Origin: Blasia pusilla
Lineage: Eukaryota
DNA length: 64,000 nt
Reading direction: 5' to 3'
Assembly: GCA_050084515.1 (NCBI GenBank)
Contig: CM114271.1
Location: 12,400,001 to 12,464,000 of the forward strand
The notes beneath the pieces were generated by a model that searched no databases, was not told where the DNA came from, and saw only the letters and a list, made by a program, of their open reading frames with translations. The position numbers were made by a program, and so were the translations under genes. This document shows, piece by piece, positions 3,831-32,842 of this stretch (within the stretch, counting starts at the first letter, position 1; every line of letters starts with the position of its first letter).

Positions 3831-4024
3831 TGCTTTTTGTGCTACTTCATCCTGTCGTATCCTCTCCTTGTATACAACTCCTCGTATACAAACATATAAA
3901 TCCTCTCCTTCCTATTCTCAACTTCCCTTCCCTCCCTAGTATACAAATCTTCCTATACAAACAAATAAATCCCTTGCGAAAGCTTTCCTTCTTGGTATAC
4001 ATGACTAGTGGTTTATATTTCGTA

Positions 4025-4148
4025 TGTCGTGGACATACACATCGCTACACAATATACATCACTGTCATCAAACACACACTCAAACACACACAATCCCATG
4101 CTAACTCATGGCATCCATACATAGAGGCGAGAAGTATCAAAATATCTC
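4025..4148 (-). repeat. Inverted copy of terminal block B
   Basis: Reverse complement of 20039-20162; also matches 46920-47047. Confidence 0.9.
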
Positions 4149-4476
4149 TCTATAATAGATCGATGGGATCTAGCAGAGCACCTTCGTGAGTAGTAGGGAA
4201 TATGCTTAGTAAGTGAGGATGACATGTTGAGGTCTAGGGAAACTTGAGAGAGTAGGTTTTCCCTTCGTTTCGGCTCATTTGGAGCCATGTTGAGGAACTT
4301 ACTATTTTAGGTAAGTACCAATTTAAGTATATATGATCGATTTTCTATTTTTGGTAAGTGGCCCTTGACCTCCTACATCAGGTCAAGAGCCAAAGAGATG
4401 ACTTGGGAGCATAGGTTACCATGGAGAGAGCTTGGGAGAGGGGAGGGGTATACCTCAAGGAGAGAGAGCTTGAGAG

Positions 4477-4668
4477 CTCATTCTCTCTTTGTTGAACCTC
4501 TTAGCATAAGGCGGTGGAGCTATTCTCCCTTGCCTTGTGAGTGTAACCCAAGCCTCTCATTAGGAGAGTGGGTTTGGTTTGACATGAGAGAGAGTGCACA
4601 CCTTTGAGAGCTATGGTGTGAGATGGTGTAGAGAGAGATTGGATCTTACTTTACAAAGAGAGAATGAG
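4477..4668 (+). promoter_or_regulatory. Putative self-priming pair (transcript 5' end / PBS)
   Basis: CTCATTCTCTCTTTGT 4477-4492 is the perfect reverse complement of ACAAAGAGAGAATGAG 4653-4668, which lies just after block A. Confidence 0.6.
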
Positions 4669-6480
4669 AGAATGAGAGAGTGAGAGAGCTTCATGGAAGA
4701 GCTCGCTCATCACTCGCTATTTTTGCAGGTTGGGGACTGTGTTCCCCGTTCAGCAGCTCATGGGAGTGCTCACCGGAGCAAGGGCTGCTTTGATTGTTAT
4801 TTGCATTTGCCGATTTTTCGTGTGGAAGAGTGGCGCGCGGAAGCGTTGCCCAATTTCTGATAGGGATTGATTTTGGGGGCGGGTTTCCCCATACCGGCGC
4901 CCTTCGGAGCACCATGTAGCTTGTTGATTTGTATTTTTACAAGTTTGACATTTTTGTCGGGAGAAATCAGCGCGGAAGCGTTGCCAAATTTTGTGGAGGA
5001 GAAAGAGACATTGGGCTTTACAACAGTCTGTTTGTTTCTATTAAAATATTTGATTCTAAATGTTTTTTGACGCTCTTGTAAATCGTGAAGTTGTGCACGC
5101 TGTAAAATAAACAGTGCGCCATTTGGAGTTGCAAGAAAAAAAGTTATGGTCAATCTTGCAAAGGTGCCATTGCTAGGCGATTCTTAGGGTTAAATTGTTC
5201 AAACCCTAAACCAGTTGCCATGCCTACGGCGGCCGTCGCCATCATAGTCATCGTCAATGATCCGATGTCGATGGTCAATTGTTACCATCAACGGTCCACC
5301 GTCCGTTGTCCACCCTTTGGTTGCCATTGCAGCCATTACGGAGTGGAGGGTCTTCCACGATGTTCGTTGATTCTCTGACTTGCGTCGCCACCACTTACTT
5401 TGTTTTGGATGCCACCATCATCGCAATTTTTTCATCAACCAATAATGGAAGATGACCTCCGGTTATGGTATTTGAGTTTTGATTTCATGCTGCTATGTTG
5501 TGATTGGTAGCCGCTTGACGACGATCGAGTATTGTGCCGTGACGCCCGTAGCCGCAACGCGCCGCCGATTGCTGCGTTGTGCGGCTCGTGGCCGCACCGC
5601 ACTGTCTCAATCACGGAACCGCTCCTTCACTAAGGAGCAAAGCATGTGAATTTTTGAGTGAGGAGGATATGCCGCTGAGTACTGCACCCCATTCCCGAGA
5701 GCCATGCTATTTGTAGCCGTTCTGTGCCGCACATCGAGGAGGTTGAGCAGCATCAGTACGAGAGGAGTATGACTTGCTGATTGGAGGAGTTGTCGTCATG
5801 ACTGAGTTGGGATCAAGATTTTCACTTGCTGAGGAGTGACATCAACATGTCTTAAGGTTACCCATTCTGGTCCTTTACCCTGCACGTGTGAGGGATTTTG
5901 GAAGTTGGGTAGTTTATTTGGGGATATTGGGTTGTGTGGATGCTGAGAGCATCATTCATGTATGTGGTTTAGGGGACATAGACCTGTGTGGGATGTCCGG
6001 AGTTGAGGGTAGGTTGTCAATGAGATGATAACATGGTTGATTTGTCGCACCACGCCGCGTGTTGCCGCACGTTACACGTCTCGGACAGGGAGAGTGTAGA
6101 TCGAGTGCCGCATGTTTGGGATGAGTGATTGAAGGATTACTTGCAAGGTTGAGAGTGATCGGGTGAGAGAGGTACGAGGGTCATCACGACGTCCGTTTGG
6201 TACTTTGAGAGGCAAGGTGGTGAACCCAAGAGTAGTTCTTGAGGTTTTACCCGGAGTGGCGCGAGGTTCCGAGGGTCTCCACGTGAGGGACCACCTCAAC
6301 CTCCTTCTATGTCATCGTCACACGAGGGGGAGGGTGTAGAAGAGTTTGTGAGCATATTGCCACATATTGTGCGTGATCCTACCAGTTGGGCATACGAGAT
6401 GGATGATCGGGGTAGAGGACCGCGTACGTTTTCAGATGCAGTAGGCACGATAGGGTTGCACGATTTCATAGCAGAGTTTA

Positions 6481-7468
6481 TGTCGTGCGCCTACTCTCCT
6501 TGAATGTCCATCTCTAGTATTGCGGAAGCGTACGTTCAGTAGGACACGCTCTCATCGCCGACCTGCACCCAAACGCTCTCACATTAGTCTCACTTTGGGT
6601 CAAGCGGCCTTCCAACCCATTGAGTTCTCAACTCGGCATCTTATCAAGCTCAACCTTCCTTACTTTCTAGGTTCCCAACATGGCAAGTCCTTCAAGACTT
6701 GGAACAGACTTTTTCGTTAGTCGAGATCCTAAAATGGCAACTACGCGCCTAGCCGTTCCAACTGTTCAACGGACCTCGTGCGAGTTCCTAACGGGGACCC
6801 AAGTAATTGAGTCGCGGGTTGGAATCCAAAAGGGATCTCTAAAAATCACCTCAATAGACTTGGTTCATGTTTTCAAGCCCAACTCCAAACTCTTGATCCG
6901 TTCCAAGCCCTTGAGCCGCCTCCTGGCGCCCAAAGTGGGGTTCGAGTCCCAAGCACCCTTGGAGACCTTTCCCCTTACTAGTACTTGGGGATCTCCAAAC
7001 ACCCCTTACTTTTGGAAAAGGATGGTCGGACCCTTCATTGTGGCTCAACACGACTATACTTACAGTCATTTTCGGGTTGTTTCTCAGCCTCTACTTGTGC
7101 GTTTGCGGAGATCTTTAGTGGCTTTTAATAAGCTTTCCAACGCATCCTTACTCGTTCCAAACGCATCTTGGCGCTAAAAGTTATGGCCATAAATACAATT
7201 AGAAACTCTCAAACGCTAGTGGCGTCCCAAATCCAGATTTCCTTCCTTTGGCAACCCACTTCTTACACTTGACTCCTCTCAAGTCTTGATCCGTGTTTGG
7301 TCCAGGTTTCTCAGTCGCGAGCACAACATATGAAGCACGAAGCCTTGCTTGCGTCTCATCTCTTGTCTCTTCTCCGAGACCACTCCAACGCGCAAACCAT
7401 CTTAGCGTGAGCCTGCTAGTGTTCCGATGTTCCGCTTTGGCGCTCGTTTGGTCATGAGGATCGCGACA
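6481..7468 (-). repeat. 3' LTR of the chromovirus
   Basis: Direct repeat of 12785-13786; adjacent to the PPT. Confidence 0.95.
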
Positions 7469-8158
7469 CTCACTCCTCTTTAGAGGTTGATGCCCTCATC
7501 AATGCAAACCTTTGTTATGTGAAGTCTCCTGGGCAGCCTACCTCTTGACATCAAATTGCGTTCTTGTGGCTAACCCGCAATTCCTCTTTAAGTCTCAAGT
7601 TGTCGCTTTGTAACACTTAGAAGTATTAGCATCTCCTCTTCGATAAGCCTGGACGTGTACCGAAGAACTAATCTATCAAATAGACTAACTAATTATGCAC
7701 CTTAGACTATTCTTGCTCACTCTCGTAAACATCCCACCTGTTTATACGGTCCACAAATCGTACTATTATTGGGTCGCTCTCGTATTCGACTTAGGCGCGT
7801 CACTACGTTTACTTATGTAGCCACAAGTAAGATCACCCGAAGCCCCAATACAGATTCATCTGCCCCGCCAACGCTAGGGCGAGCCTGAGTGTCATCCAAC
7901 ACTGGTCTTGTTCTAGGTGCTTATCCAAATACGAGCTCCCACCTCAAATACTCCTTGTCTCTCCTCTTGACTTACATCCTAAGCATATGATGAACGACTC
8001 ATAGCCATGCACTACCACATACAAATTGCAATGAAACACTAGCATCGAATCTCCAAATCCATGCATTCCTTTATTGCAACACTAGCCTGTTCTAGTTACA
8101 ACGGCATTCGGCCCAAGATTCCTATGGTCACAAGTTATGTCTTTAGCTTCTCCGCCTA

Positions 8159-9481
8159 CTAGCGTATGTGCTTCTCCTGCGTCCGCTTGAAGTCTCGCAA
8201 CACCTCTTGCGCGTGTTCCAAATCTGCCTCCGCAATCCAAGTTGCCTCCTTCACATGGTAGCCCTTCCATTTAACCAAGTACTCGTTCTTGTTGGCCCGA
8301 CGCCTTGAACGCAAGATGGTCTCCACCTCGAACTCCGGTTCTTCATCCACGATTACCGGTTGCGGTCTCAACACTTGTCTCCGCTTGAAACGCCCATTAT
8401 CTTGAAGATATTTTTTCAACAATGGCACATGAAAGGTCGGGTGAATCTTGAACTCGTCCGGCAGCTGCGATGTAAACACGTCCTCAAACGGGTTTGCCAT
8501 AATCACATACGGTCCAGCATACTTGGCAGATAGCTTTGCAGACAACTCTTTTGGCAGAGTGAGATTCTTCACACTCAACCATACTTGCTCTCCAACTTGG
8601 AATCGTACTTGGCGCCGACTCTTGTTAGCATGCTTAACGTACCTCATTTGAGCCTTTTCAAGACTTCGCCTTGCTCGCTCTTCCCATTCTTGCATCTCTA
8701 CTAACAAACCTTCTGCCCTTGCTTGTCGTGTCCGTACCAATGTAGAACCCTTCGAAAGGGCTAGGTCAAGAGGCCCTTCTGGCTCTCGTCCATTTTCCAG
8801 GAGAAACGGAGATTCTCTAGCTGCAGAATGCTTGGTCGAGTTGTAGCAGTACTCTGCGATGCTTAGCCACTTGACTGAATCTCGTTGATCCACACTCACA
8901 TAATTCCTAAAGTATTGATTCATGATCGAATTTACCTTTTCAGTTTGCCCATCCGTTTGTGGATGGAAGGAAGTGGTGAAACTCAACTTGGTCTTAAATT
9001 TTGTGAATAAGTGCTTCCAAAAAGCACTGGTAAACTTTGGATCTCGATCTGAAACAATACTCCTTGACAAACCGTGAGTCTGCCACCAGCCATCCAGGAA
9101 CAATTGCGCAATCGTATAAGCTGTTGCGGAATCCACCGTCAGCACCAATCTCACCAACTTGCTAAACCGATCCACAATCACAAGTATAGCATTGTATCCC
9201 TCAGATTCCGGAAGACTCGTGATGAAATCCATACTCACACTTTGCAAGGGTCCTTCTGGAATCGGCAAGGGATGCAACATGCCTTGTCTCTTATCATAAG
9301 AAACTTTGTTTGCTTGGCAGATCACACAGGTCTTTACATATTGAGCTACATCCTCTTTCATGTTGGGCCAGAAGAACCGCTTAGACAGAACAACCAACGT
9401 AGATTTCTCTCCTTTATGTCCTGCCAAGGGTCGGTCATGACATTCCACTAACACCTTAGTCCGCATCCTGCCTTGCCCCAC
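8159..9481 (-). pseudogene. Integrase plus C-terminal chromodomain
   Basis: HDRPLAGH..CVIC zinc finger; SMDF / SDRD / GQTE DDE; AGPY (GPY/F); FEVETIL..EYLVKWKGY..EATW chromodomain. Confidence 0.95.
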
Positions 9482-9504
9482 ATAGATCCTGCTCTGCTTG
9501 AACC

Positions 9505-11000
9505 TTAGTTAACCTGCCTCAAACTTATGTGGGCCACCTTCTCACCTTGCTTCGACCTCTTCAGAAACTCCAATGCTAGGTCGTCTCTCATGTATCCCTC
9601 ACGAATCCTTCTCTCCAGATCTGTTTCCTTAGGGAACATTGCTCTCAAGACCTGTGTCATCAATGGCATGTGTTCCTCCTTGCGACTCAACGCATCTAGA
9701 ATCACATTATCTTTACCTGGCTTGTGAAACAACTCAACATTCATCAACGCCAAGGTATCATGCCATCGCAGTTGTTTCGATATCACTCGATCCTGGGTCT
9801 CAAAATACTTGAGCGATATGTAATCCGTGAACACTCGAGTTTTTTGAAGTCCCAAATAGTGACGCCACTTCCTCAAACAATGGACCACCGTAAAAAACTC
9901 TTTCTCATGAGTAGGCCATCTTCTTTGAGTGTCGCTAAGCTTCTTGCTCTTGTATGCTACAGGTCTCCCTTCTTGCACCAACATTCTTGCAATTGCGAAA
10001 TCACTAGCATCAGTATGCACCTTGAATGGTTTGTCATACTCTGGCAGCTTCAGTACTGGTTCCTGCGATAGAATCTGCTTCACTCGGTTGAACATCTCAT
10101 TAACTTCTTGGGTCCATGTCGTGTTGGCACACTTTGTTGTCCAATACGTAAGAGAGCTCACAATTCCAAAAAAGTTCCTCACATAAGTGCGATAGAACTG
10201 CACCGCACCTATGAACCTCCTCATCCCCTTTACGGTGGACGGCGGTTCCCACTCGGCAATTTCTTTCACCTTCTCCATGTCTGGACTGACTCCATCTGTG
10301 CTAACCACATGACCCAAGAATTTGATCTTGCTCAACCCGAATTCACTCTTCTCTACATTCGCATACAGCTGATTCGCCCTTAGTTTTGACAAAACCGCTC
10401 TCACATGTCGAGCGTGCTCCTCTAGCGACTTCGAATATATAAATATATCATCAATGTACATGATCACATACTCATCCGTCTCCTTGTGAAAAATGGAGTT
10501 CATCAATGTGGTGAACGTTGGAGGCGCATTGCATAGACCGAAAGGCATCACTACAAACTCAAAGGATCCATATCTTGTCCTGCTCGCAGTCTTCACATCT
10601 GCCTCAGCAATCCGGATCTGGTAATAGGTAATATCTTGACTTCAAGTCAATCCTACTAAAGTATCTCGTGCCTGCCAACCTATCAAAGAGATCATCTATC
10701 CTCAGAAGAGGTTAGTTATTTCAAACTGTCACTTTATTCAGCGCACGATAATCAACACACAACCTCATCTTCCCATCCTTCTTTTTCACAAAGAGAACGA
10801 GTGCTCCATAAGGTGACTTGCTAGTCTTAATGTAACCCTTTTCCAAGAGCTCACTTAACTGCCTTTTTAACTCAAGAAGTTCTTCTTGATTCAACCTATA
10901 TGGTGCCTTGGAAGGCGGTTGGGAACTAGGTATGATCTCTATCTTATGATCGAGTGCTCTATGCGGCGGCAACTCAGTTGGAAGCTCATTTGTCAAGACA
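9505..11000 (-). pseudogene. Reverse transcriptase and RNase H (frameshifted)
   Basis: [48 protein letters not shown]. Confidence 0.95.
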
Positions 11001-12701
11001 TCCTTAAACTCATTGACCACTTCCTGAAGTAGTGTTGGGGTTCCCCTTGAAGTAGTGTCTTGATCTCTGCGTATTTTGCTTGTAGTCTCCTCCACTTGTC
11101 TCATCAAGGAGAGAAATTCATCCTCTAACTCGGTCATGCTCCTCCTTGTAATAGTATTCACCAACTCCTTTTTCACCGGAACCTCACAAACCAACCGCAT
11201 ATGCACCCGTTTGCCTTTCAGCAAGACGCTCAACCTCAATGGTCTACGTCTTAACTCCACCTCATACGTGTCCACAAATGTATTCCCCAAGACTCCGTCA
11301 ATGCCATCCATCTCGCACACAGTGAAATTCTCCTTCAACTCGAATACTCCGCATCCTATGGTTGAACCCAAGACCAACTTGGAAGTCCGATGAGACTTGC
11401 CTCCGGCAAATCCCACTCAAATGGGCTCGTCCGCCTTAGAGGTGGACAAACCCAGCTCCTTAAGGATTCTCGGGCTTAGGAAGGAGTGCAAAGCACCTGT
11501 ATCCATGAGCAACAACATATCACAATCAGCAATCTTGGATCTTAGGTACACCAAATTAGGCGTCCTCTTGGAGACCTGAAGGGACGTCTCGAGACCACCT
11601 ACCGACAAGTGCTTAGCAGCAAACTCAATCATACTCCCATTACTAACCTTCGGTTTTGAGCACCCTTTCGCCATGTGTCCAGGCTCGCCACAGTTGTAGC
11701 ATATGACCTTGCCGTTTCTTGACTTAGAATGTTGTCCTCCTCTTGGCTTCGCATGAAGTTCCACTCATTTTGTTGCCGTGGCAAGCGACTCTCCTTGGTC
11801 GCGTGAGCCCCCACTCCAGACTCTCTTGGATGTTTCCTTATTTTTTGCATTCTTCGAAAAACCTTTTGACTCAAAGAGCTTTTGAGTTTGAACTTCATCG
11901 TCCCACATCCGCTCGAGTAGCTTTAGAAGGTCTGCATAGGTATCTAGCAATGCCGGCATTCGGTAAAGGGCCTTTTCAGCACTCGGTTTAAGTCCGCTAA
12001 TGAAGATAGCCTTCTTCGCGTGCTCATCCATTTTAGGAAGAGAAGTCAGTTTCGCACTAAACTCCCTCACGTAAGCGCTTAAGGAACCACTCTGCCGCAA
12101 CCGTATGCATTCCACCGTGTCGCGCAACCCTTGGTACTCCAAAGTCAATCAATCACCAATAAACACCTTAAACTCCTCCCAACTCAAGGGTGACTCGCCA
12201 GCCAGATGTTCCTCTTATTGAGCTTTCCACCACTGTAGCGCATGATCTTTTAAGAAAGTAACGGCCACCGTCACCTTGTCCTGCTCAACTGCCCTTGGCG
12301 CCTTGAAGTATAGTTCCAGCTCCGTAAGGAAATCCTTCACTTTCCGAGAACGCCCCACCCCCACTGAATGGCGTGGGCAGGTTTGTCTTGCAAAGCTTTT
12401 TGCCAGCACCCAGGGTTCGGTCTGCCTCTAGCTCTGCAATCCGCTTGCTTTGCTGGGACATATGCTCTACCAACAACTTCAACAAGTCCAACATCTGACT
12501 TGACTCAGTTGGTTCCTCTGAGTTTGGAGCTGATGGCCCCGCTGAAGGATTTTCCTCTGGAACATCCTCATGTCTGGCGTTCAGCTCTTTGGGAGTCTCC
12601 GTCTCCTCCATAGCTTCACGGTCCGGCATTGGTTCGACTCTCGGTTCACGTCGCTTGATTAAGTGCTTCTTGGGTTTGTCTCCCTCGATCGCTATCTTCA
12701 A
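11001..12701 (-). pseudogene. gag (CCHC knuckle) and aspartic protease
   Basis: FLKDHALQWW, LRQSGSLSAYVREF, CYNCGEPGHMAKGC, LLMDTGALHSF; several stops. Confidence 0.9.
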
Positions 12702-12784
12702 GCCGCCTCACTCAGATCTCCAACTTGTTTCTTCCGTCCCTCCTCGAGCATCTTGGCCTAACCGCTACCTTGAGTTTCCACAAG

Positions 12785-13786
12785 CGTCATGCGCCTACTC
12801 TCCTTAAACGTCAATCTCTAGTATTGCGGAAGCGTACGTTCAGTAGGACACGCTCTCATCGCCGACCTGCACCCAAACGCACTCACATTAGTCTCGCTTT
12901 GGGTCAAGCGGCCTTCCAACCCATCGAGTTCTCAACTCGGCATCTTATCAAGCTCAACCTTCCTTACTTCCTAGGTTCCCAACATGGCAAGTCCTTCAAG
13001 ACGTCGAACAGACTTTCTGATTAGTCCAGGAACCTAAAATGGCAATTGCGTGCCTAGCCGTTCCAACTGTTCAATGGACCTCTTGCAAGTTCCTAACGGG
13101 GACCCAAGTAATTGAGTTGTGGGTTGGAATCCAAGAGGGATCTTTAAAAATCACCTCAATAGATTTGGTTCATGTTTTCAAGCCCAACTGCAAACTCCTG
13201 ATCCGTCCAAGCCCTTGAGCTGCCCCGTGGCATCCAAAGTGGGGTTCGAGTCCCAAGCACCCTTGGAGACCTTCCCCCTTACTAGTACTTCTGGGGATCT
13301 CCAAACACCCCTTACTTTTGGAAAAGGATGGTCGGACCCTTCATTGTGGCCCTCAACGCGACTATACTTATAGTCGTTTTCGGGTTGTTTCTCAGCCTCT
13401 ACTTATGCGTTTGCAAAAATCTTTAGTGCGTCTAAAGTAACTTTTAATAAGATTTCCAACGCATCCTTACTCGTCCCAAACGCGTCTTGGCGCTAAAAGT
13501 TATGGCCATAAATACAGTCGGAAACTCTCAAACGCTAGTGGCGTCCCAAATCCAGATTTCCTTCCTTTGGCAACCCACTTCCTACACTTGACTCCTCTCA
13601 AGTCTTGATCCGCGTTTGGTCCAGGTTTCTCAGTCGCGAGCACAACATATGAAGCGTGAAGCTTTGCTTGGGTCTCGTCTCTTGTCTCTTCTCCGTGACC
13701 ACTCCAACGCGCGAACCATCTTAGCGTGAGCCTACTAGTGTTCTGATGTTCCGCTTTGGCACTTGTTTGGTCATGAGGTCACGACA
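12785..13786 (-). repeat. 5' LTR of the chromovirus
   Basis: Direct repeat of 6481-7468. Confidence 0.95.
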
Positions 13787-14479
13787 ATTTAGGACTTGGT
13801 GTGACTTCCAACGGGCCAGGAACTCTCGAGAGTTCAGCTGGTTTACAACATGAAACGGTATGTTCCAGCATTTAGAGGGGGCACCCATGGACGATTACCA
13901 TGAGTTCTCCCATAGATATGCCGAGGAGATTGAGGCATGGAGACTCTACTATGACCCACACTATGTGTCATGGACGGAGCCGTTCCTAGATGAGGAGGAG
14001 GAGTCTGGAGAGGCTACTTACTGTTCCATTTATGATGTTTAAGGAGGGGTCACTCGCACTGGAGCAGTTGCACCATCTAGTTGGGTTCGTCCCAAGTTCA
14101 ACCCTGTGGTTGAGTTCTTTGCTGAGATCAGGGCGAGCTACTAGGGGTACGGACGGAAAAGTTGCGGAGCATCCACGACTTCTAGAGGCACCCAGGTGAG
14201 AGTTTGTGTGAGGCTTACACTTGCTTGCGCCAATTGATCAACGTCACTTAAGGGGTGACAGAGGCTTAGGCTATGGAGTCATGGTACGCGATGCTGGACC
14301 GGACCCTACAGACATGGGTGCGGGAGGGGTGCTTCTTATGAACACCTCCCCTACGTTGAGAGATGTTCTTAGGACTGCCAAGAACATTGAGCGCAACATG
14401 GCAGAGGAGAGCGTAGCCACCATGGATTCTCGGCAAGAGCAGTCACGATTGGCTGCACCACCTATGGACGGCCACCGTT

Positions 14480-15540
14480 GTGTACCCCACTCCTTTATTT
14501 TCTGCTTCTGATGTTATGATGTTGGGGGTTACGCCCACCGAGGCTCTTCGACTGCCCGCTTCATTATATGAGTGCGGAGTTGGAGTTTCTGCATCACATT
14601 CAGAGGTGATTATAGAGGAGGTGATGGTCTTGCCCTTGGAGCGGATGCTCGAGCCGTCCACGTCAGATTCATGGCAGGCTACGGCTGCAAGGATGGCGGA
14701 GATGCCCGCTAGATCCACGGTAGAGCATGCCATGGCTTCTCCTGGTATTGTGTTGCTGGATAACCAAGGAGAGGTCTTCCAATTGGTTAGTCTCGGAGGT
14801 AGAGCTTTTAGTCCACAACGCGTCTTGTTGGATTCAAGAACGCAACCCCTAATGTTGGGGAAAGCGTCATTAAGAGGATTGGGCTTCACGAGGGCCGATG
14901 TGGAGCGTTGTTCGTTCCAGATACAGACATCCTTGGGTGGAGCAAGTACCACACAGTATATCACCCAACAAGAGGTCGTGGTGAGGATTCGCCCGGGACA
15001 TCCTATAGATGAGTCCATGGTACGAGCCAAGGCGATAGTGACTGATGTAGAGTCGTACGACGTCTTGGCTGGTGGAGCAGTGTTAATTCTGATGGGGTTT
15101 TCCCTGGATTACTGGGAGGAGTCAGCGTCCTATAGTCCAGGATGGCAGCCAGGTGATGGGCGCCTTAGCTCATTACCCGTTCGATTCACAGGTGTAGTGA
15201 TCGAGCGACGGCCAGGAGAGGTGGCGAACTCAGCAGCATTTAGCAGTGCCATCACTTGGCCTAATGATTTGATTGAGGGACATATCCATGCACAGGATAC
15301 TCCCGTTTCTGACATTTCTATGGAGAGGAGTGTTATGGTAGCCGCATCATTCTGTGGAGGAGAGGTGTTGTTGTGGGGCTCAACTGAGGAGCTTCGACGA
15401 TTGGAAGAAGAGCACGTGCAGACCGCGTGGAGCGAGACGTTTGCATCAGAGCGTGACGGATCTGAGGAACCTGAGGTAGCAGGGAGTGCTACGATGACAC
15501 CCTTGGATACCACACCCATTGTGTGGTGTATCCAAGAGGA
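14480..15540 (+). pseudogene. Retropepsin-like protease and linker
   Basis: RVLLDSRTQPLMLG (VLLDSGAQPLILG in the family II copy) and YDVLAG. Confidence 0.8.
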
Positions 15541-16490
15541 GGGTATTTGAGTGTTAGATCTCTTTGGAGGGATTAGCACCGGGTTAGCTGTTGTTTTGCA
15601 AGGAGTGCTAGTGCAGCAATACCTATATGTGGAGAGTAATGATGTTGCAAGGCGCGTCTCACTACAACATGTGGCGCAGTTACGCCTAGATTTTCTTGAC
15701 TTATTGTCTGCATCTACGGTACATGGGTACCAGAGTTCCCTATGGAGGGATATTTTGTTGCTGGAGGCGCATGATTTAGAGTTTAGGAACCATTGATTTG
15801 GTCATTGCCGGTTGGCCATCTCAGGGCCAATCGAATGTTGGACGAGGCAACGGGTTGGCTGACACTCGGTCCATGTTGTTTTGGGAAATGTTGAGGGTCT
15901 TACGACAGTTGTAGGAGCACCAGTCTTGTTCTCCAACCTACATTATGGAGAATGTGCCAATCTTAGGAGACTCCAAGTCATGGGTGGTGACGAGTGCTCA
16001 TCAGCAGTGTTCTTGGATGCGGCGAGTGTAAGTTCTAGAGCCCATCGCCTGAGTCTATGGTGGACCAACTTGGTGCCCCATGCAGTGTTACGGAGGGCGT
16101 ATGCGAGAGTGGAGCGTCCCTCCCATTTGTTAGTGGATCCCATTCTGGATCCAAGTTGTCGGTCACAGGAAGTGAGGCACAATGATCGATCACCGTTGAA
16201 TGTGGTCAAGAGGGTAGGCAGGCCGCGGGCAACGTTGCCCACGTTTGTGAGTTTTCCCGCTTCCTATGCATACAAGGAGGCCAGTCCTGGCTTGGTTTGG
16301 GATGACCAAGTTGAGCGGTTGGTGGAACCCAACGCCGACGAGAGAGAGCGAGCGATGGGATTTCCCACAAGAGTGACGGCAGCACCGTCAATTTCAGAGG
16401 CATCACGACGCCATGTCTTGGGTCATGCTATGGACCTAAACTGTTTGACATTGATCCTTAGCTTGGGAGTGGCTGAGCAGCGCCGTATGA
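15541..16490 (+). pseudogene. DNMT3-like C5 cytosine methyltransferase domain inside pol
   Basis: Motif I VLDLFGGISTG; II YVE; IV DLVIAGWPSQG (~15795-15826); VI YIMENVP (~15940-15960); VIII AHRLSLWWTNL; IX ERERAMGFP; X RRHVLGHAMD. Confidence 0.9.
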
Positions 16491-16780
16491 GATCGCGATA
16501 GATCACTGTGGTTGCATTGGTGAGCCCCATGCCTACCGAGACAGTGGAGGCAATGGTTGGGGGCGAGACTCGAGGAGATCTCCACACCAGGGGAGATCCG
16601 GAGAGACACCCTTGGACTTCTTGGGATGTTTTGCAGGTACGCAAGGAGATGATAGCCACATCATCGAGCGTGGTTCTAGGCACTACACATGGAGGAGACC
16701 AAAGTTTGCATTTGGCTGCGGGAGAGCGGCCGAGTGTTGTTGTTTGAGACGGAGTTGCACCATAGCAACCACCGATACCC

Positions 16781-18235
16781 GTGCCGCAGAGTCCTACCAT
16801 AGTCACGATGGAGACTTGGGAGCCAAATATGGGCCCTAAGTTGATAGGAGGAGAGCGGCGCCGGATACATCACTTCCTCAGGAGTTATAGGAGTTGCTTT
16901 GCGTTTAGCATGGAGGATTTGGGTATGCTGAAGGGACCGGGGATCCACATTGAGTTGTCAAGTGATACGCCACTCTTCCCACGACCCTATAAGTATAGTG
17001 ATATGGAGAGGGATCAGATTCAAAGAAGGAGCGAGGACTTGGTCGGAGGAGGACTAGTAGAGATGTCTCATGGGGAGTATGCATCTGCTAGTGTCATGCT
17101 CACCAAGAAGGATGTGCATGGCAACTGGATAGATAGGCGGATGTGTGGGGATAGTTTGATAGGTATGCCATGCCTACCCGTGAGGAGATCTTTGATGCGA
17201 TTGGTCACGTAAAGGTCTTCAGTTCATTTGATTTGCGAGCCGAATACCATCAGCTGCCTATCAGATTGGAGGATAGGCAGGAGACGGAATTTTGGGGCAT
17301 CGATCCTCACGGGAAGGATTGTTTGTACCAGTGGCCGTTCTTACCATTTGGGTTAAAGAACGCCCCAACAGAGTTTCAGAGGGTCATAGATAAGATCTTG
17401 GCTCGTCTGGATTTTGCTAGGTGTTATATTGATGACATTGTAGTCTTTAGCGCCACGGTTGAGGAGCATGAGCGACATCTAGAGGAGGTGTTTCGACGAT
17501 TGCAATTACATGGGCTGAAGCTAGATACAGGCAAGTGCAAGTTCTTCTACGACCAGATTGAGTACTTGGGTCATACAATATACCCAGGGGGCTTGGTATT
17601 CAGCAGACGAAGGTAGAGGCTATCTCATGCATTCCACGCCCTAAAGGTGTGATCCGTGTTCGCGTATTCATGGGATTGGCGAACTTCTATCGACGGTACG
17701 TCAAGGGATTCAGTTTGATTGCAAAACCGCTAACCTTGCTGACCAAGATGGATCACGAGTGGCACTTGGGGGATGAGCAAGAGCAAGCATTTCAGTTGCT
17801 CAAGGATAGGTTGACGTCCGCGCCTATCTTGAGGAGACTGATCAGGGGGCGTCCTTTCCAGTTGCACACAGATTGGAGCATGTTGGGGCTTGGAGCGGTG
17901 CTCACCCAACATGATGATGAGGGTAGAGAGTTTGTGGTGGCTTACGGTAGCTGCTCAAAAAATGCTGCAGAGGTGAAGTACAGCTCGTATGAGGGTGAGT
18001 GGTGGCTGCAGTATGGACTTTCGCGCATTTCAGCTGTTACTTATTTGGCATACCCTTTACCATCATCACTAATCATCAACCATTGAAGTGGTTGATGGAG
18101 TCCGAAAAGCTTACAAGGAAACTTGCGAGATGGGCTCTGTTGTTGCAGGAGTATGATTTTCAAGTGGTACATAGACCTGGGACGCTCAACGAGGATGCAC
18201 ATGGGTTGAGTCGTAACCCATGCCCGAGTCGATGA
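16781..18235 (+). pseudogene. Reverse transcriptase and RNase H
   Basis: RRMCGD, FDLRAEYHQ, LPFGLKNAP, CYIDDIVVFS, LHTDWS, LARWALLLQEYDF..HRPG. Confidence 0.95.
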
Positions 18236-18436
18236 GATGCGACTGGAGCTCGATGGCATGAAGAGAGTGATGAGGAGTCAGTGCGAGGATGGCACGCGTC
18301 AGCCTATTTAGGCATGTTGGCTATGGAGAGACAAAGTGTGGAGACTTTGATGGCGAGGTCTAGTGGAGAGTCCTTGGATCACAAGGCCATTGAGGAGACC
18401 ACAGGTGGCTGAAATATTCATGATGATGGAGTAGTC

Positions 18437-19848
18437 TTGGAGTATCTTCGTATCGGCAGCGTTGCAAGCACCATGGGTGCTAGAGAGGGGGATTGGATCC
18501 TACAGCAGGCCAGACAGTTCCGTTGGGAGGGGACACATGTTTTGAGGGTTTGGGAGGATGGTAGAGTAAGCGTAGTGCCGCATCGTTTGCAGAGAGCACG
18601 ACTAGTGCAGCATGCCCATGAGGTCACTTTGGGATGAAGAAGACGTACAACTTGCTCCAGATTCAGTATTGGTGGCGAGGCATGCAGACTGACATTCAAC
18701 AGTTTGTTGCCAGGTGCATGGTGTGTGATCGGGTCCGAGCATCGTTCAATGCTCTGATTCCACAATTGCATCCATTACCGATCATGGGCTTAGGGTATAG
18801 ATGGAGTTTGGATTTTGCAGGACCTCTGCCTTTGACGGAGCGTCACAGTTGTTATGTGTTGGTGATAGTCGAGCTCTTCTCGAAGTGGATCGAGTTCGTT
18901 GCATTGCCTGACAAAGCGAATGAGGGAGTAGCTTATGCCTTCCTTGATAGAGTGTTGAGTCATTATGGTGCACCGGCTAAGGTGTTGACGGACCAGGATA
19001 CCAAGTTTTGCGGTGAGTTCCAGGCCTTGTGTGATGAGGCGCTGATCGACCATCGCACGACTTTGCAAGATCAACTTGAGGCGGATGGATTAGCGAAGAG
19101 AGTTGTGCAAACAGTGAAGAGGGGTCTATGCAAGTATGGCTTGCAGAGAGTTCACCTAGGAGATTGGGACCTCCAATTGTCGTGGTTGGCGATGGGATAC
19201 AGATTCAGCAAGAAGGCATCCTTAGTATCTTTTTCACCGTACTTGCTACTTTATGGCGGAGAGCCAGATTTACCTGCAGCCATTCATCGAGATGCTGGTG
19301 AGGTGCTGGACCTCGAGGACCTAGATGTATGGATGCAAGCATGTTGTCAGACGGCTGAGTTGTTTCAGAGAGTGATGCCGATGGCGTTCGAGAACTTGGC
19401 GATTGCGCAACAGCGGGATACGTTGAGGTATGCGACTATTCGGGGTGGTGGTTATCGACCAACTATCCATAGGTTTCATCAAGGAGATTATGTCTTCTTG
19501 CAACAGACGGCACCGACGAGGTTGGATGTGACTGTATGGCGCACTATCTTGAGAGTGCGTGACATTTTGCCATCCCGTGTTCTCTTGCTGGAGGGACGCA
19601 ATGGTATGGTATGGAAGGACCATGTGCGTGATTTTGCGCCATGTCACCTTGCTAACATTGATGGTACAATAGATCCGAGCTCACTAGTAGTTCCTACAGG
19701 CTTGCGTTGTATGTTGTGTGGTTCTGCTCGTGGTGCGGCCACGATGCTAGTCTGTGATGGATGTTCGAGAGGTTGGCATATGGCATGTCTGGCGCCACCT
19801 CTCACTAGGGTTCTTCGGGGATGATGGATATGTCCCTGATGTACATAG
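18437..19848 (+). pseudogene. DDE integrase with C-terminal PHD finger (19708-19842)
   Basis: HAH..CMVC, WSLDFAGP, LTDQ, ADGLA(E/K)R; C4HC3 CMLC..CDGCSRGWHMACLAPPL..WICP*C. Confidence 0.9.
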
Positions 19849-20025
19849 AGGAGATACTAGGTAGGTTTCGATTCCGACTTTTTTTGTGATATGGATGATA
19901 GGAAGGCGACTAACGATGGGGCCACATGAGCACCCGACCTTTCTGCTCTTAGCGTCCTAGAGATGTATGTCGTGGTAGGTAGGGATAGATGGCTAGCTGG
20001 AGTTAGAGGGACCTAACCACCTACT

Positions 20026-20336
20026 AGGGGGGCGATTGGAGATATTTTGGTACTTCTCGCCTCTGTGTATGGATGCCATGAGTTAGCATGGGATTGTGTG
20101 TGTTTGTGTGTGTGTTCGATGACAACGATGTATGTTGTGTTGCGATGTATATGCGCACGATAGGTGTCACGACTGTTAGGATATATTCTAGACCTACTTA
20201 ACACGTCCTCCACTACTCACGAAGGCACTCTGCTAGTTCCCACCGATCTATCCTACCTCGATCTACTGAGCACGTCCTCCACTACTCACGAAGGCGCTCT
20301 GCTAGATCCCACCAATCTATCCTAACAATCGTGACA
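20026..20336 (+). repeat. PPT (20026-20034), block B (20035-20162), GG, start of A (20165-20187), inverted A start (20190-20336)
   Basis: AGGGGGGCG; junction CGATA-GG-TGTCACG; 20190-20336 has two ~65-bp units that are reverse-complementary to 4154-4215 and to 37917-37975. Confidence 0.85.
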
Positions 20337-22975
20337 CGTGGCGTGAGGATATTTTTGGGTATACATAACTAGTGGTCCTATTCAAAACAATTTCTTGTTC
20401 CCAAAAACTTCTCCTCCCGGCCTTTGATATACAAACTCAAAGTGTAAGAATGTGTCTCTCTCTCCCACCCTTACCAAAACACCTTCCCTACCTCTAAAAC
20501 CTAGCTACTTGAATGCCCCCCTTAGCCGTCCCCGCTCCCATGAATACCCCTTAGCCGTCCCGTACCCCCCTGCCATGTGGCCACTAAACAATCTGTGTCG
20601 TTCAGGAAGGCTTCAAAACGCCTGCGTAGTTAGGAGAGGACGGGACCCCGTCCTCTCCTTTAATAATATAGATTGTATCTAAGAAAAGCTATGTGAGGCT
20701 TCGTCAACGTTATCATCTTATGGAACTTTATGGCACAGCAGATCCGATGGGTCGAGGTGGCGTGGCATGAAAGGGAGGTTGGTGTGGGGTCGGGGTTGGC
20801 AGAGATTTACAGCTCATGGCGCTGAACTCTGAATCTTCGAAATCAAGAATTCTACAAAAATCGCCTCTCGATTGATCGTGCTCAAAATATTTGTTAGGGG
20901 TGAAGCCAGAAATCCCGACAATTGCATGCGTAATTAAGCCATGAAATTGGAGTTGAGAGAGGTTGCTGGTAGTTGATGACGGTGGATGCCATCAACCGGC
21001 ATCGACCTCGCCAACGGTAGCTATGGAATTGAGGCACGAAATTTCCTCTCGGAGATAAGACAGGCCGAGGCGATTTCTTGTGGAGGGGCGCTAGTATTGG
21101 TGTCGCTTGCGATGGATAGTTTCTGTCATCAGATCTTTTACTTACTCCCCGTTTGTGCAGATGTCTCGATTCAACTCGATTGTGAGAACCCTCGCTCGCT
21201 CGCTGTGGAGCTTACTTGTGGACGACAAACAGACGCAGAGAGGTATATGCAGCGAAGAAGGGCACCGTCAAACAATTAGGTAACTCTAGACAGGCGGGCG
21301 GCCGAGGTTGGTTCGGCCAGATGAGGTCACGTCTTGTGTCGAGACCGGGGAACACCACGAATCATCCTAGTCTTCATGGACAGCGTTGGGCCCCGGCTCC
21401 CAGATCCTAAAATTTTGTGATTCTTAGGAGGGAAAGCAGAGGGATCAAACTTCCTCCCCAGTTTGATCCCTTTGACGAAAATTTACAAGTTGGTTTAGTT
21501 GTCCTGATTGCATGCAGCCTACGATTACTTTCGCACAGCTTTTCAAACATTGGGTCCTATCTCATCTCCAGGAGTCTAGCTCCGGTAGGCTCGATCTGTA
21601 CTCTGGGGCTAGATCTAGATTTCGGACAGGATAGATTTCGTCCCTTCTGAGCCCTATGACCGATCGAGCTCTGAACTAAATCCCCGAAGAAACGTAGTTG
21701 CTTTGCCAAGGAGGCTAGCTATCTAAGAAACCATAATACCTAGGTCCTTCGACGAGTAGATCTAGATCACCTTGCAAGGGTTACCGTTCAAGCTATTTCG
21801 ACGGATTCAAGTGTGTTTATAAGCAGCTGACTGAACTGCGTTTATCACGACTCCCGGAATTCTGTGCACGCTGAATTCTGCGTTCATTAACCTCTAGCCG
21901 CGCGCGCCTGAGTGTCGTTAACTAGCTCCTTGCAGCGACTACAGATGAGATCGTGCGTACGTAAGTATTCATCATATGCCTCGAATCAGATTTTCATAGT
22001 CAAGTTTCTGAAGATGACGCAGGCTCAAGACCACATAAATCAATCCCTTGCTGCAAACCCAGTTGATTCTCCAGCTGTACTGAAGACTTGAGATAATCGG
22101 AATTGAATTGATTTCTGATTAATAACCATAAAAAAATGAATTTACTTCTGGTAGATACATATCCGAATACGAATTCCCGGTTAAACGCAATCGACGATAC
22201 TCATGTGCCATCCCTGGAGTAGATAGATGTGCCATAGCTTTGCATGACTGAGTTTGCATTATTATCATCAGGTCCCCACCACGCTATCTCAAGCAAGAAA
22301 AGCCCACTTCAACAAAAGAGTGCTGGAAAATGGCGTAATCAGCTTTTATTCTATATATTCCACGGAATGTTTCTTCGCTGTCGAGATTCGAACTTTGTCA
22401 AGGTTATATTTAGTTCTGAAATATCGACAGATGTGCTTGTCGCCGTCGCGTAATACACTAATGTACGCCCACTAAGAACATTGATAGTCGTGTTCACATC
22501 CACAGTTACAGTCAACTGGCTACCAAATTGATTACATTTGGACGAATTGGAGATAGATTCGCACCGTGTAAAATTCCGTTTGAAGATAACTTGAGTCAAG
22601 AGGACTCGAGGAGCGAAAAGGCGTAAAGCTCACTCTAATCTCTACGTGATGTGTTGTTGTTCGTGGCCGGGATAGTGAGCTCCATCCCGATGTATTGACC
22701 GTCCACGTCGCTGCCTGGCCACTGTAACGTCCGCTGACCAAGTACAATGCCCTATTCACAGGGTATATCTCTCAGCTATTCACATAGAGCACGCGTGTTT
22801 CAAGTTTACGAAACGATGCGGGAAACTATTGCTGGAGAATTCCGCCTGTATCCAGTGCGCAACAACTCCAGCTTTAGACGAATTCTTGCTACAGTTTTTG
22901 ACCATTCATGCTCAGTCATAATTTTCCTTACTTTATATGAGTCTATATGGCTCTGAATTTTCGCACACTTATTAA

Positions 22976-28644: not shown

Positions 28645-29306
28645 TCAATTTGAACTATAGATCAAGTCTAGAAATAAAAACTCGACCCAACTATGTATCT
28701 TAATAATAAGCATTCGGAACTATAGTTTTCAATGATACCATTGGCCTCTGTTGGGGCTACCTCACAATTGGAAATATAGATCGAGTTCCATAAATTAGAA
28801 TAAAACCCAACTACCTAAAGGATGAACATTCAAAACTCTAGTTCCAAATGATATTGTTGGCATCTCTCAAGACTACCTCATAATCTCAAAAATTCCAGTT
28901 CTAGAGCTCAACTTTCTAAATAATTAGTATTCATAACTCTAGTTTCGAATCACATCGTTGGCCTGTATCTGGAATACATCACAATCAAAACTATAGATCC
29001 CGTTCCAAAAATAAGAATTGAACCCATCTACCTAAACGATCAGCATTCAGAACTGTAAGTCCAAATGATACCGCTAGCCTCCGTAAGGACTAACTCACAA
29101 TTCGAACTAAAGATTAAGTTCAAAAAATGAGAATTTAACCCAACTATCTAAACGATGACTATTTGGACCTCTAGTTCCAAATGATTTCCGTGGCCTCTCT
29201 TTGGACGACCTCGCAAACGAAACTATAGATCTAGTTCTAGAAATGAAGATTGAACCCAACTTTCTAAAAAAATGAGCATTCAAAACTTAATCCAATTCCA
29301 AATCAC
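28645..29306. repeat. ~116-bp satellite, segment 1
   Basis: Units GGAACTATAGAT..GAACCCAACT..GATGAGCATT..GTTGGCCTC; anchors at 29021, 29137, 29253. Confidence 0.85.
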
Positions 29307-30115
29307 TGTCATGCGCATACATATCAATACACAACGTACATCGCTCGTCACATCTACACCACACAACACCGATCTTCCCCACACACGGGTCGATCCACAC
29401 ATGTACAAAAATCAACTCATACATATACATGGAGATCACACAACAAAAATAAAGAGTAGTAAAAACGGCACACCCGGCCTAAAACTCCACTCCTCAATCT
29501 ACATCGGCATATCTAGCCTCGTCCACCATGTGCTATCAAGGAATCCGGACGCTAGCACCCTAGTCCTAGCTCACACACATACAAGGGAGGTGCTCCAACG
29601 GCCCAACATGAGAAAGATGGCTTAGGAAAGCCATCTTCCTCTCTTATATAGGTTGGGAAGAGCCAAAAGGCTCTTCCCCTAAAAATAGCCCTTCCCTTGG
29701 TAACCTGCGTGCACAGGTTACCAGGGGCGGGTGACCTGGTCAACAAGTCATCCGGATGTACAAGACCTCAACATGAAAGTCGTCAGAAACGACGTTCCTG
29801 ACACAATAGACATATCCTCAACCTCATCCGACACTGTGGGACAAAGTTACACTCAAGATAGTCGGCTGGCTCCTACGCCCTATCCACGATAGATCTCGGC
29901 CTATCGGCTACTCAGATATGACAGCTGTCGTGCGCATACATCGCTCGTCACATCTACACCACACAACACCAATCTTCCCCACACACGGGTCGATCCACAC
30001 ATGTACAAAAATCAACTCATACATATACATGGAGATCACACAACCGCCTCCCTAGCTGGCAGTTGGATCCCCCTAACTCCAGATAGAAAATATCACATAT
30101 CTCTGACATGACCTA

Positions 30116-31450
30116 CTACCCTATACACATCTCGGACACATCTGCAGATCCGCACAACATACACCTCAAGCCTGCAGGTACCACTGCCAAGCTCGGATCC
30201 ACCGTCCCATCTACGTTCGGAAGATGACATGGCGCACAATTGCGCACATGATCCTTCCAAACCATACCATCCCGTCCCTCCAACATGAGGACTCCGGTCG
30301 GTAATACCTCGCGCACACATAGGATCGTGCGCCCTGTAGTGACATCTAGCGTCGTGGGTGCCGCCTGCTATAAATACACGTAATCTCCAGGATGAAACCT
30401 CCTAATCCCTGGACGATAACCTCCTCCACGAATGGTCGCGTACCTCAATGTATCTCTATGTTGGGCAATAGCTAAGTTCTCAAAGGCCATAGGCATAACT
30501 CTACGAAAAACTTCTGCCCTCTGAGAACATGCTTGAACCCACACCTCTGGATCATCAAGATCTAACACCTCCGCCATGTCACGTCGAATCGCTGCAGGTA
30601 AATCAGGCTCTCTCCCAAAGAGCAAAAAGTACGGTGAAAATGACGCCAAGGATGCCTGCCGACTAAAGCGATAACTCATAGCCAACCATGGCAATTGTAG
30701 GTCCCACTCCCTCAACTGTCCCCGCTGCAAGCCATACTTGCGCAATCCTCTCTTCACCGTCTGTACCACTCTCTCTGCCAACCCATCCGCCTGAGGATGA
30801 TCCCTGGACGTGGTGCGGTGATCTATCAACACCTGATCACACAAGGCCTGAAACTCTCCCCTGAACTCGGTACCCTGGTCAGTCAACACCTCCGCCGGTG
30901 CACCAAAGTGACTAAGCACACGATCTAGAAACGCATAAGTTCTTCCCTCGCTCGCCTTGTCTGGTAGTGCCACCAACTCTATCCACTTGGAGAAATGCTC
31001 CACCATGACCGACACGTACCTATGATGACGCACTGTCAATGGCAAAGGTCCCGCAAAGTCTAAACTCCACCGATAACCTAAACCCATAATCGACAAAGGA
31101 TGTAAGTGCGGAGTGGGAGCATTGAAGGATGCTCGCACTCTGTCACATACCATACATCTGGCCACAAACTACTGTACCCCAGTATGCATGCCGCGCCACC
31201 AATACTGAACCTGGAGTAAAATTTGTAAATGCACGCTTTACTCCGAAATGTCCCAACTCCTTATGGGCATGTCGCACTACACGTGCTCGCTGGGAAGGAT
31301 GAGGTACCACTCGTATCCTACCATCTCCCCATACCCACAAAATGTGAGTCCCCTCCCACCTGAACCTCTTGGCTCTCTGTAGGATCCGATCCCGCTCCCT
31401 AGCACTCACTGTAATTGCAATGACGTCAGTGCGCAAGAACTCCACAACCT
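30116..31450 (-). pseudogene. Integrase, with a PHD truncated after CMLC
   Basis: HAHKELGHFG, CMVC, WSLDFAGP, LTDQGTEF, ADGLAER; LRCMLCGSA then a deletion. Confidence 0.9.
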
Positions 31451-31619
31451 CCACGTCGTCATGGATATCACGACCACCTGTCGCCTCCTCACTAACCTCC
31501 GGATCCAAAGACTCATCATCCAATCCCACCACTAGAGTCATCACCTGTGGCTGACCTGCCATAGTTAACCAACAAAGATAGGCAGATGCATGCCAACCGG
31601 GCACCATCTCCTCATCACT

Positions 31620-32842
31620 CTCTCCGTGCCATCAAGCTCCCGTGACGTCTCTCTGACTCGGCTCAACCCATCCGCATCCTGGTTCAGCCGACCTGGCCTA
31701 TGAACCACCTCGAACTCATACTCTTGTAGTAATAGAGCCCACCTGGCAAGCTTTCCCGTAAGCTTGTCGGACTCCATCAACCACCTCAACGGCTGATGAT
31801 CAGTGATAAGTGTGAAAGGGTTGCCGAAAAAATAGCACCTTAAATGTGCCACGGCCCACACTGCAGCCAAGCACTCTCCCTCGTAGGAGTTGTACTTCGC
31901 CTCTGCAATGTTGTTCGATCGGCTTGCGTAAGCCACAACGAACTCCCTCTCCTCATCATCCCTCTGAGTAAGCACTGCTCCTAGACCCAACATGCTCTTA
32001 TCCGTATGTAACTGGAATGGGCGACCCCTAAACGGTCTCTGTAAAATGGGTGAGGACGTCAACCTGTCCTTGAGCTCCAGAAATGCTCGCTCTTGATCAT
32101 CTCCCCACAACCACACCTGATCAAGTCTCGTCAACAAGGTCAAAGACTTTGCGATCGCACTAAAACCCTTGACATACCGTCGATAGAAGTTTGCCAGTCC
32201 AAGAAATGCTCGGACTCGACTCACATCTGTATTTGGATTGAAGAGCTCCGCAGGCGCGTTCTTCAATCCAAATGGTAAGAACCGCCACTGATACAAGCAA
32301 TCTCTCCCGAACCGATCTATCCCCCAGAATGATGTCTTCTCTCCTGCCCTCCAACCTGATAGGGAAGCGATGATAGCCAAAGACGGAGATCTAAAGTACT
32401 GAAGATCTTTGCATGCCCTACCGCATCAAAGATATCCTCAGGAGTAGGCATGGCATACCGATCTGACCTCGTCTGTCGGTTGATAGGACGGTAATCTCCA
32501 CACATCCGCCTATCCGTCCAATTGCCAAACATATCCTTCTTCGCCGGCATGACTGTGGCATATGCATACTCCCCACGTGATAACTCCACAAGTCCTGCCT
32601 CCAACAAGTCCTGACTCCTACTTTGAATCAAGGCTCGCTCCATATCAGAATACCTGTAGCTAGGGTCGACGAAAGATTGGCGTATCACTAGCCAACTCAA
32701 TCCGTATCCCGGGACCCTTTAGCGTACCCAAGTCTATCATACTGAAGGCAAAACAACTGACATGCCCTCTCAAAAACCTATGAACTCGCCGTCGCTCTCC
32801 TCCTATCAACTTGAGACCTATCACAGGCTCCCAAGTCTCCAT
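31620..32842 (-). pseudogene. RT (YxDD segment deleted) and RNase H
   Basis: RRMCGDYRPIN, FSTLDLR; LPFGLKNAPAE joined directly to RVRAFLGLANFYRR; FQLHTD. Confidence 0.9.

Follow-up and report, generated by a model that had tools for sequence, protein, structure and literature searches.

An inverted, DIRS1-like copy in a Ty3/Gypsy family of Blasia pusilla and its probable origin by fold-back

We analysed a 64,000-nucleotide stretch of the Blasia pusilla genome (GenBank assembly GCA_050084515.1, contig CM114271.1, positions 12,400,001 to 12,464,000; referred to here as the window), in which a retroelement copy with ends arranged like those of DIRS1 lies at 4025-20336. The copy consists of a coding region and two repeat blocks: A, which resembles the U3-R-U5 part of a long terminal repeat (LTR), and B, which directly follows the polypurine tract (PPT). 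Positions within A are numbered on a natural copy of the family, L003. Self-comparison and the raw sequence of the window bore out the map of the initial annotation, according to which an inverted B is joined to a 5'-truncated A on the left, B-GG-A is followed by an inverted A on the right, and the internal junction is complementary to both outer ends (Table 1). On the left, positions 4025-4148 are the reverse complement of 20039-20162 (112 of 124 positions identical, 90.3%). This terminal B lacks the first 4 nt of B and is separated by a 6-nt filler from an A that begins at position 17; nucleotides 1-5 of the filler match, in reverse complement, the 5 nt with which the adjoining A begins. The right end reads PPT, B, GG, A(1-22), inverted A(12-80) and inverted A(1-80), so that the inverted part (20188-20336) holds a 69-bp tandem duplication that was absent from the initial description. 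The second A (A2) of this copy is without R.

The inverted ends are flanked, as had been noted, by a 4-bp target-site duplication (TSD), CGTA/CGTG, with one mismatch. A 4-bp TSD with at most one mismatch has a chance probability of 0.0525 and is weak evidence by itself; that of this copy is credible because 4-bp TSDs are the rule in the family. A near-identical 21-bp sequence is present in both host flanks (3993-4013 and 20357-20377), 11 bp to the left and 20 bp to the right of the element, which suggests a short tandem repeat at the target site. All repeat pairs inside the copy have diverged, with identities of 74-90%: the terminal A and its 69-bp duplicate are 88.4% identical, and the left A and the right A copies are 74-79% identical over 68 nt. 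This divergence argues against an assembly artefact, and misassembly was rejected on this ground. Short reads from three raw-read runs were mapped at the right junction, where the zone 20166-20237 is covered at a depth of approximately 1 in run X10 and approximately 5-13 in run X13 and contains three allelic differences. Depth was zero at 20166-20189 in the third run, X9, and the Logan contigs of run X1 included no piece across the junction.

Table 1. Features of the inverted copy and of related elements, in window coordinates.
Feature	Position	Strand	Remark
Left TSD, 4 bp	4021..4024	.	CGTA
Terminal B piece, inverted	4025..4148	-	CA end against host DNA; PPT-side end minus 4 nt
Filler, 6 nt	4149..4154	.	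head-to-head B/A junction; read from sequence
A1 from position 17	4155..4652	+	U3-R-U5-like LTR part; first 16 nt absent
Exact complement of the primer-binding site (PBS), 16 nt, inside A1	4477..4492	+	putative transcript 5' end and self-primer
PBS	4653..4668	+	adjoins 3' side of A1
Nested younger Ty3/Gypsy element	6481..13786	-	chromodomain integrase; LTRs 6481-7468 and 12786-13786
C5 cytosine-methyltransferase remnant	15482..15917	+	broken
Reverse transcriptase (PF00078) and RNase H (PF17919, PF17917)	17155..18083	+	separate broken frames
Integrase (PF17921, PF00665)	18622..19821	+	C-terminal PHD finger (PF00628)
PPT	20026..20034	+	directly 5' of B
Internal B	20035..20162	+
Internal attachment (att) junction	20159..20168	.	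GATA-GG-TGTC, decayed from family palindrome GACA-GC-TGTC
A2, first 22 nt only	20165..20186	+	then fold-back junction
Inverted A(12-80)	20188..20256	-	inner copy of 69-bp tandem duplication
Inverted A(1-80)	20257..20336	-	TG end against host DNA
Right TSD	20337..20340	.	CGTG
Sister-subfamily copy, complete, direct form	29301..36938	-	TSD GAGA/GTGA

The element belongs to Ty3/Gypsy. It has the domain order reverse transcriptase, RNase H and DDE integrase, together with a PBS, a PPT, TG...CA ends and a short TSD. What is absent is the Ty3/Gypsy norm of two complete direct LTRs: the family is arranged as A-coding-B-GC-A/B and this copy is inverted. The integrase has zinc-binding (H2C2) and core (rve, DDE) domains, with an incomplete catalytic triad in this copy, and its named relatives come from Calypogeia, Riccia, Marchantia, Sphagnum, Klebsormidium and Haematococcus. 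The methyltransferase remnant is 59-67% identical to a PF00145-positive frame (33647-34138) of the sister copy. Pfam detected no gag in the 5' frames. No tyrosine recombinase (Phage_integrase) was found in 40 frames from this copy, six related copies and the nested element, frames that are decayed enough for a remnant to have been lost. The nested element has LTRs that are 93.7% identical and a 5-bp TSD (GTTTA/ATTTA), and its LTR ends look like the B end of the family that hosts it. A likely 3' splice site, TTTGCAG/GT, lies approximately 70-80 nt past the PBS in both subfamilies (4690-4735; 36410-36470 on the reverse strand), hinting at a spliced transcript.

The genome (390 Mb in 26 contigs) was searched with exact patterns, which miss decayed copies; all counts are lower bounds. 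Our data show that the normal integrated form is TG-A1-PBS-coding-PPT-B1-GC-A2/B2-CA with a 4-bp TSD. A follows the internal B in direct orientation at all 29 other right-end loci examined, and a second B follows at 26 of them. Five of the 20 longer stretches reach the 5' end, and all five carry a 4-bp TSD with at most one mismatch. A set of 30 direct A/B joins chosen by position comprises 18 right ends of the form A-coding-B-NN-A/B, 9 solo A/B loci (TSD read in 8) and 3 deleted forms. The mirror form, A/B-GC-A-PBS-coding-B, was found at none of these 30 joins and among none of 3 pattern matches, compared with 851 normal junctions genome-wide in which the PPT stands directly before B1. The internal junction is the palindrome GACA-GC-TGTC, which shows C-to-T and G-to-A decay, and the 16-nt PBS after A1 is exactly complementary to 4477-4492 within A. 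Since the PBS follows A1 and the PPT precedes B1, they bound the unit B-GC-A and not A-B. Whole B-GC-A units are present at 5' ends or in tandem at L012, C5:37.44M and L121.

The A/B join itself varies. Among 100 direct joins listed, at least 5 retain 2-16 nt of the PBS, one retains a PPT remnant and one is deleted; primer-site remnants of this kind are typical of end-joins between LTRs. On a tree of A2 from 39 copies (those of 62 candidate loci with a complete A and a join that could be read), the different join types lie dispersed, and one pair of near-copies differs in join type.

Several other forms were observed within the family. At L121 (C5:15.64M) coding-PPT-B-GC-A is followed immediately by another B-GC-A, as would be expected of a join between two complete reverse-transcription ends. 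The locus C8:6448470-6452960 (L229, L228) is A-coding-B without an internal junction and with a TSD of CACT/CACT. Single-copy A-coding-B forms are common among metagenome loci (L165, L184) and could derive from 1-LTR circles or from recombination between B1 and B2. Within the window, the sister copy at 29301-36938 has a self-complementary PBS of its own besides its methyltransferase frame, and it shares the palindrome. The copy at 37917-47047, which the initial annotation had taken for a sister with direct split repeats, does have A1, part of A2 and a B at its end; an internal B is missing.

We next consider how often inverted forms occur. The right junction of the copy at 4025-20336 has a single match genome-wide, itself. 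With the same B motif, direct A/B joins outnumber head-to-head joins by 1751 to 7 (controls 0), and in the sister subfamily by 627 to 1 (controls 0). In total there are 10 head-to-head loci, one of them from the sister subfamily, whose partner breakpoints are all different. Both att ends are present at six of the 10, together with a TSD in which no more than one position differs: CGTA/CGTG (this copy), CATA/CATA, CTAG/CTAG, ACCG/AGCG, TAAT/TAGT and GGCA/GACA. At 0.0525 each, the probability of six or more TSDs among 10 loci by chance is 3.6e-6. At four head-to-head loci the unintegrated A keeps its TG plus 1-2 extra nt (GT, AT, TC and A). Furthermore, 23 loci fold back exactly at the PBS complement, with both of the arm orientations predicted by an opened hairpin and with varying opening points; L227 has the TSD TACG/TACG. 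Inverted right ends (B-NN-A followed by inverted A) are also present at L223, L211 and C3:4.92M, with different breakpoints; in the 18-30 kb fetched for each of these three, no inverted B turned up that would match as a left end. No second complete inverted copy was identified; L012, C3:9.94M, C4:2.81M, C1:17.41M and C1:51.65M could not be closed. As a separate observation, C4:2811000-2816000 (L047) contains two inverted solo B pieces within one family copy, one of them flanked by A positions 17 and 15, and the arrangement resembles a one-ended self-insertion of a B piece.

The initial annotation had left two explanations open: that an integrase-encoding lineage replicates with both of the terminal geometries known from tyrosine recombinase elements, or that this copy is a repair product in which properly integrated att ends were rejoined to an inverted core. 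It had proposed a genome-wide count of inverted and direct forms to decide between them. That count, with rare inverted forms and variable breakpoints, falls on the side of a repair product. The other explanation is not supported, given the unique right junction, the direct orientation at the 29 other right-end loci examined, and the ratios of 7 to 1751 and 1 to 627.

The architecture is also present in another host. In metagenome assemblies we found 78 loci with a related integrase, and 41 with enough 3' flank were mapped. Fourteen rows, some of which are one locus in different assemblies, have B-NN-A/B with the same palindrome. In three rows (two loci, L144/L163 and L149, whose left ends lie beyond the contig ends) the B-NN-A end is folded back at the PBS complement. 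Most other rows end at B, two with a readable TSD. Since these contigs share both the layout and the fold-back, neither is private to this genome.

In ordinary LTR elements, the ends made from the PBS and the PPT are the ends used by integrase. The aberrant copies, the variable A/B join and the positions of the PBS and PPT together indicate that here the integrase ends are not the PBS/PPT ends. We consider it likely that the copy at 4025-20336 was an aberrant insertion, dead on arrival, from a Ty3/Gypsy lineage in which integrase acts on ends other than those of reverse transcription. From layout, counts and junction sequences we propose the following mechanism. The transcript would prime itself in the manner of Tf1, a step that we infer from the PBS complement within A, and reverse transcription would yield B-GC-A-coding-B-GC-A, in which the LTR is B-GC-A. 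Within the left LTR, integrase would cut both strands of GACA-GC-TGTC, each time after CA and with a 2-nt stagger, and both CA ends would enter the host with a 4-bp stagger. The TG plus 1-2 nt on unintegrated A ends is what a 2-nt overhang would leave. Host end-joining would then connect the two leftover ends, U5 of A2 and the PPT side of B, and so create the split direct repeats; that host repair joins free ends is inferred from the variable A/B joins with PBS or PPT remnants. Only the left junction would be cut, perhaps since it becomes double-stranded first; left-only cutting must be assumed because the mirror form is absent.

Inverted copies would arise from a plus strand that bends back onto its 5' portion and continues synthesis across the junction. 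In the case of this copy, the growing plus strand may have halted at A2 position 22, switched to the A1 plus strand near position 80, slipped once and then copied back through the junction, with the whole element as the loop. The folded-back arm would have provided the TG-A end that entered the host, while the freed 5' end of A1 would have lost the nucleotides before position 17 and become ligated to the PPT end of B. An internal copy of the end junction combined with fold-back would then account for the DIRS1-like appearance. The strongest sign for fold-back is the set of 23 loci that fold exactly at the PBS complement. To judge from the sequence identities, the rearrangement and the insertion are probably of the same age: the pairs of B (90.3%) and of A with its duplicate (88.4%) have diverged about as much as the nested LTRs (93.7%) or more, as would fit an event at or close to the time of insertion. 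Because A2 is without R, no minus-strand transfer is expected, and the copy should not breed true.

A number of observations weigh against this mechanism. The mirror form would be expected if both junctions were cut alike, and a symmetrical 2-LTR circle intermediate, which predicts mirror and normal forms in equal numbers, was rejected on the same count. The minimum-energy RNA fold of 4455-4690 leaves the PBS unpaired with its complement. The 69-bp duplication requires an extra slip, and trimming is required at two ends. The left A is 74-79% identical to the right copies, below the 90% of the two B pieces, which could mean a second template. Join types cluster weakly on the A2 tree (10 changes against a shuffled mean of 12.3; 9 of 200 shuffles were as low). 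Four of the 10 head-to-head loci are without a resolvable second end or TSD, L126 keeps GACA-AC before TG, which a single cut does not predict, and C5:37.44M requires a tandem template. All steps, moreover, are drawn from sequence.

Some of these observations would suit other origins. The same internal-att family could have produced the copy without fold-back during reverse transcription, if both att ends were inserted and the repair machinery of the host then restored the core in reverse orientation, using templated synthesis, the attached A arm having broken or come from a second complementary DNA (cDNA); this is the plainest form of the repair product envisaged initially. The filler and the 69-bp duplication do resemble repair synthesis, the left A differs more from the right copies than the B pieces do from each other, and cores are scrambled or in tandem at some loci (C5:37.44M, C3:4.92M). 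Such repair needs a third template for A(17-80), however, and accounts neither for the 23 fold-backs precisely at the PBS complement nor for the unintegrated A ends that still carry an intact TG with 1-2 additional nt, and we regard it as unlikely. A normal direct copy might instead have been inverted later in the chromosome, by template switching or by recombination between short repeats. The outer ends and TSD match a normal minus-strand insertion, rearrangement of old repeats does occur, and stretches of 70-120 nt allow only coarse dating. Yet the duplication of A(17-80) and the loss of A2(23-513) would not follow from a simple inversion, head-to-head joining at the PPT end of B is seen at 10 loci and often beside an intact TG, and the duplicated arms are no younger than the B pair, which makes a later inversion rather improbable.

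That the arrangement combines separate insertions or results from misassembly is very improbable. The mismatch in the TSD and the low short-read depth, at the right junction only and zero in one of three runs, would be in keeping with it; the divergence of the repeat pairs, the reads of two runs that cover the right junction zone, the five other loci with the same end polarity and TSDs, and the fact that no second TSD was seen inside the copy save that of the nested element all speak against it. We give the least credence, close to none, to a second, self-propagating DIRS1-type architecture within this integrase-encoding lineage. The geometry does fit the DIRS1 order of left extension (lE), left inverted terminal repeat (lITR), internal complementary region (ICR), right inverted terminal repeat (rITR) and right extension (rE), other right ends with B-NN-A and inverted A exist (L223, L211, C3:4.92M), and two loci in another host (L144/L163, L149) share their fold-back point. 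But the other inverted right ends break elsewhere than the unique junction of this copy, the point common to the two loci of the other host coincides with the PBS complement, where a hot spot is built in, and the inverted repeat lies upstream of the putative transcription start. A TSD is present, and no tyrosine recombinase was found in the frames searched. A replicating inverted form was rejected on the unique junction, the direct orientation at the 29 other right-end loci examined and the 1751 to 7 joins, as counted with exact patterns that miss decayed copies.

The surroundings of these copies are rich in repeats. A satellite-like, AT-rich array with a period of approximately 115 bp (28635-29306, 36943-37900 and 47047-47923) hosts the copies at 29301-36938 and 37917-47047. 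The 5' part of another sister-subfamily copy lies at 750-2858 on the reverse strand, with its 3' side cut at approximately 750, and tandem arrays of 207 bp (54680-55733), 141 bp (52980-53270) and 181 bp (59833-60222) are present. Elsewhere, long (GA)n or (CA)n expansions lie within A and B of rearranged copies (L032 913-1059, L053, L054).

The copy itself is a dead, one-off accident, and the base layout of the family is already in print; such accidents open an unexplained integration mechanism to testing. We lean towards a broader proposal, that a Ty3/Gypsy lineage of bryophytes and green algae has decoupled its integrase ends from its reverse-transcription ends, with the cut at a ready-made circle-junction palindrome in the LTR as the only route and host end-joining finishing every insertion, so that a layout like that of PAT/Ngaro is the rule and a DIRS1-like one a fold-back accident. 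If true, a side activity of retroviral integrase becomes a main route, and the family is a natural example of two layouts of the tyrosine recombinase type interconverting in one step without a recombinase. The family numbers well over a thousand copies in this genome, and programs that detect LTR elements by two full direct LTRs should overlook it or misplace its bounds.

The closest published counterpart is KnitGypsy-Dnmt3 of Klebsormidium nitens, a Gypsy element with a C5 methyltransferase (de Mendoza et al. 2018, PMC5890265), for which the legend of Fig. 4c gives repeats arranged as in DIRS and domains as in Gypsy. A C5 methyltransferase inside the Gypsy pol is common to both, though broken in our copy, and the A-coding-B-A-B repeats are shared with the family (26 of 29 and 18 of 30 loci) but not with this copy. 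K. nitens proteins that combine integrase and PHD finger are 45-49% identical to the integrase described here; they are not tied to the named KnitGypsy-Dnmt3. In the available main-text parts and supplement text of PMC5890265, a mechanism, a PBS or PPT, an internal palindrome, a TSD and inverted forms all go unmentioned. Our literature search found no further paper naming KnitGypsy-Dnmt3 and, among titles and the starts of abstracts (a coverage outside which lie most subscription journals and Repbase reports), no mechanism, LTR-internal att site or inverted forms for the lineage. The value of our data lies in this class of elements, for which they offer a testable mechanism for a layout that is in print without an explanation in those parts of the source.

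Self-priming is described for the Ty3/Gypsy elements Tf1/Sushi and Tcn1, whose PBS is complementary to a segment of their own LTR, as here (PMC6317226); unlike this family, they have two ordinary direct LTRs and att sites at the cDNA ends, and Tcn1 belongs to the chromovirus clade, whereas our integrase has a PHD finger at its C terminus. In vitro, HIV-1 integrase can make an internal cut in the palindromic 2-LTR junction (PMC1905944), and the palindromic CA...TG site resembles the one that we propose is cut here. The retroviral reaction is a side route on a junction made after reverse transcription, whereas here the palindrome is encoded in the LTR and would be the only route. PAT/Ngaro elements have A-coding-B-A-B split direct repeats like the normal form of the family (PMC7192593) but integrate by tyrosine recombinase, while the family has an integrase, a PBS, a PPT, a TSD and a variable A/B join.

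DIRS1-like elements are described, in the portions of PMC3266345 at hand, with a tyrosine recombinase, a 3-bp circular junction, no TSD and the lE/lITR/ICR/rITR/rE layout, and deletion showed that DIRS-1 needs its ICR to rebuild its termini (excerpts of PMC7192593). The initial annotation had assigned this geometry to our copy, and the layout does fit: both have inverted termini, an internal region complementary to both ends, and left and right extensions (PMC3266345, PMC7192593). The likeness is geometric only. As far as these sources go, DIRS1-like elements encode a tyrosine recombinase, where this copy has a DDE integrase and yielded no recombinase in our search; they are without TSDs, where this copy and its family have TSDs of 4 bp; their 3-bp circular junction has overlapping ICRs, where GACA-GC-TGTC has a 2-nt spacer (CA-NN-TG); and they multiply in the inverted layout, which here is a single copy genome-wide. 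Inverted termini together with an ICR do not alone identify a DIRS1 element: this copy resembles DIRS1, but it neither is one nor works like one.

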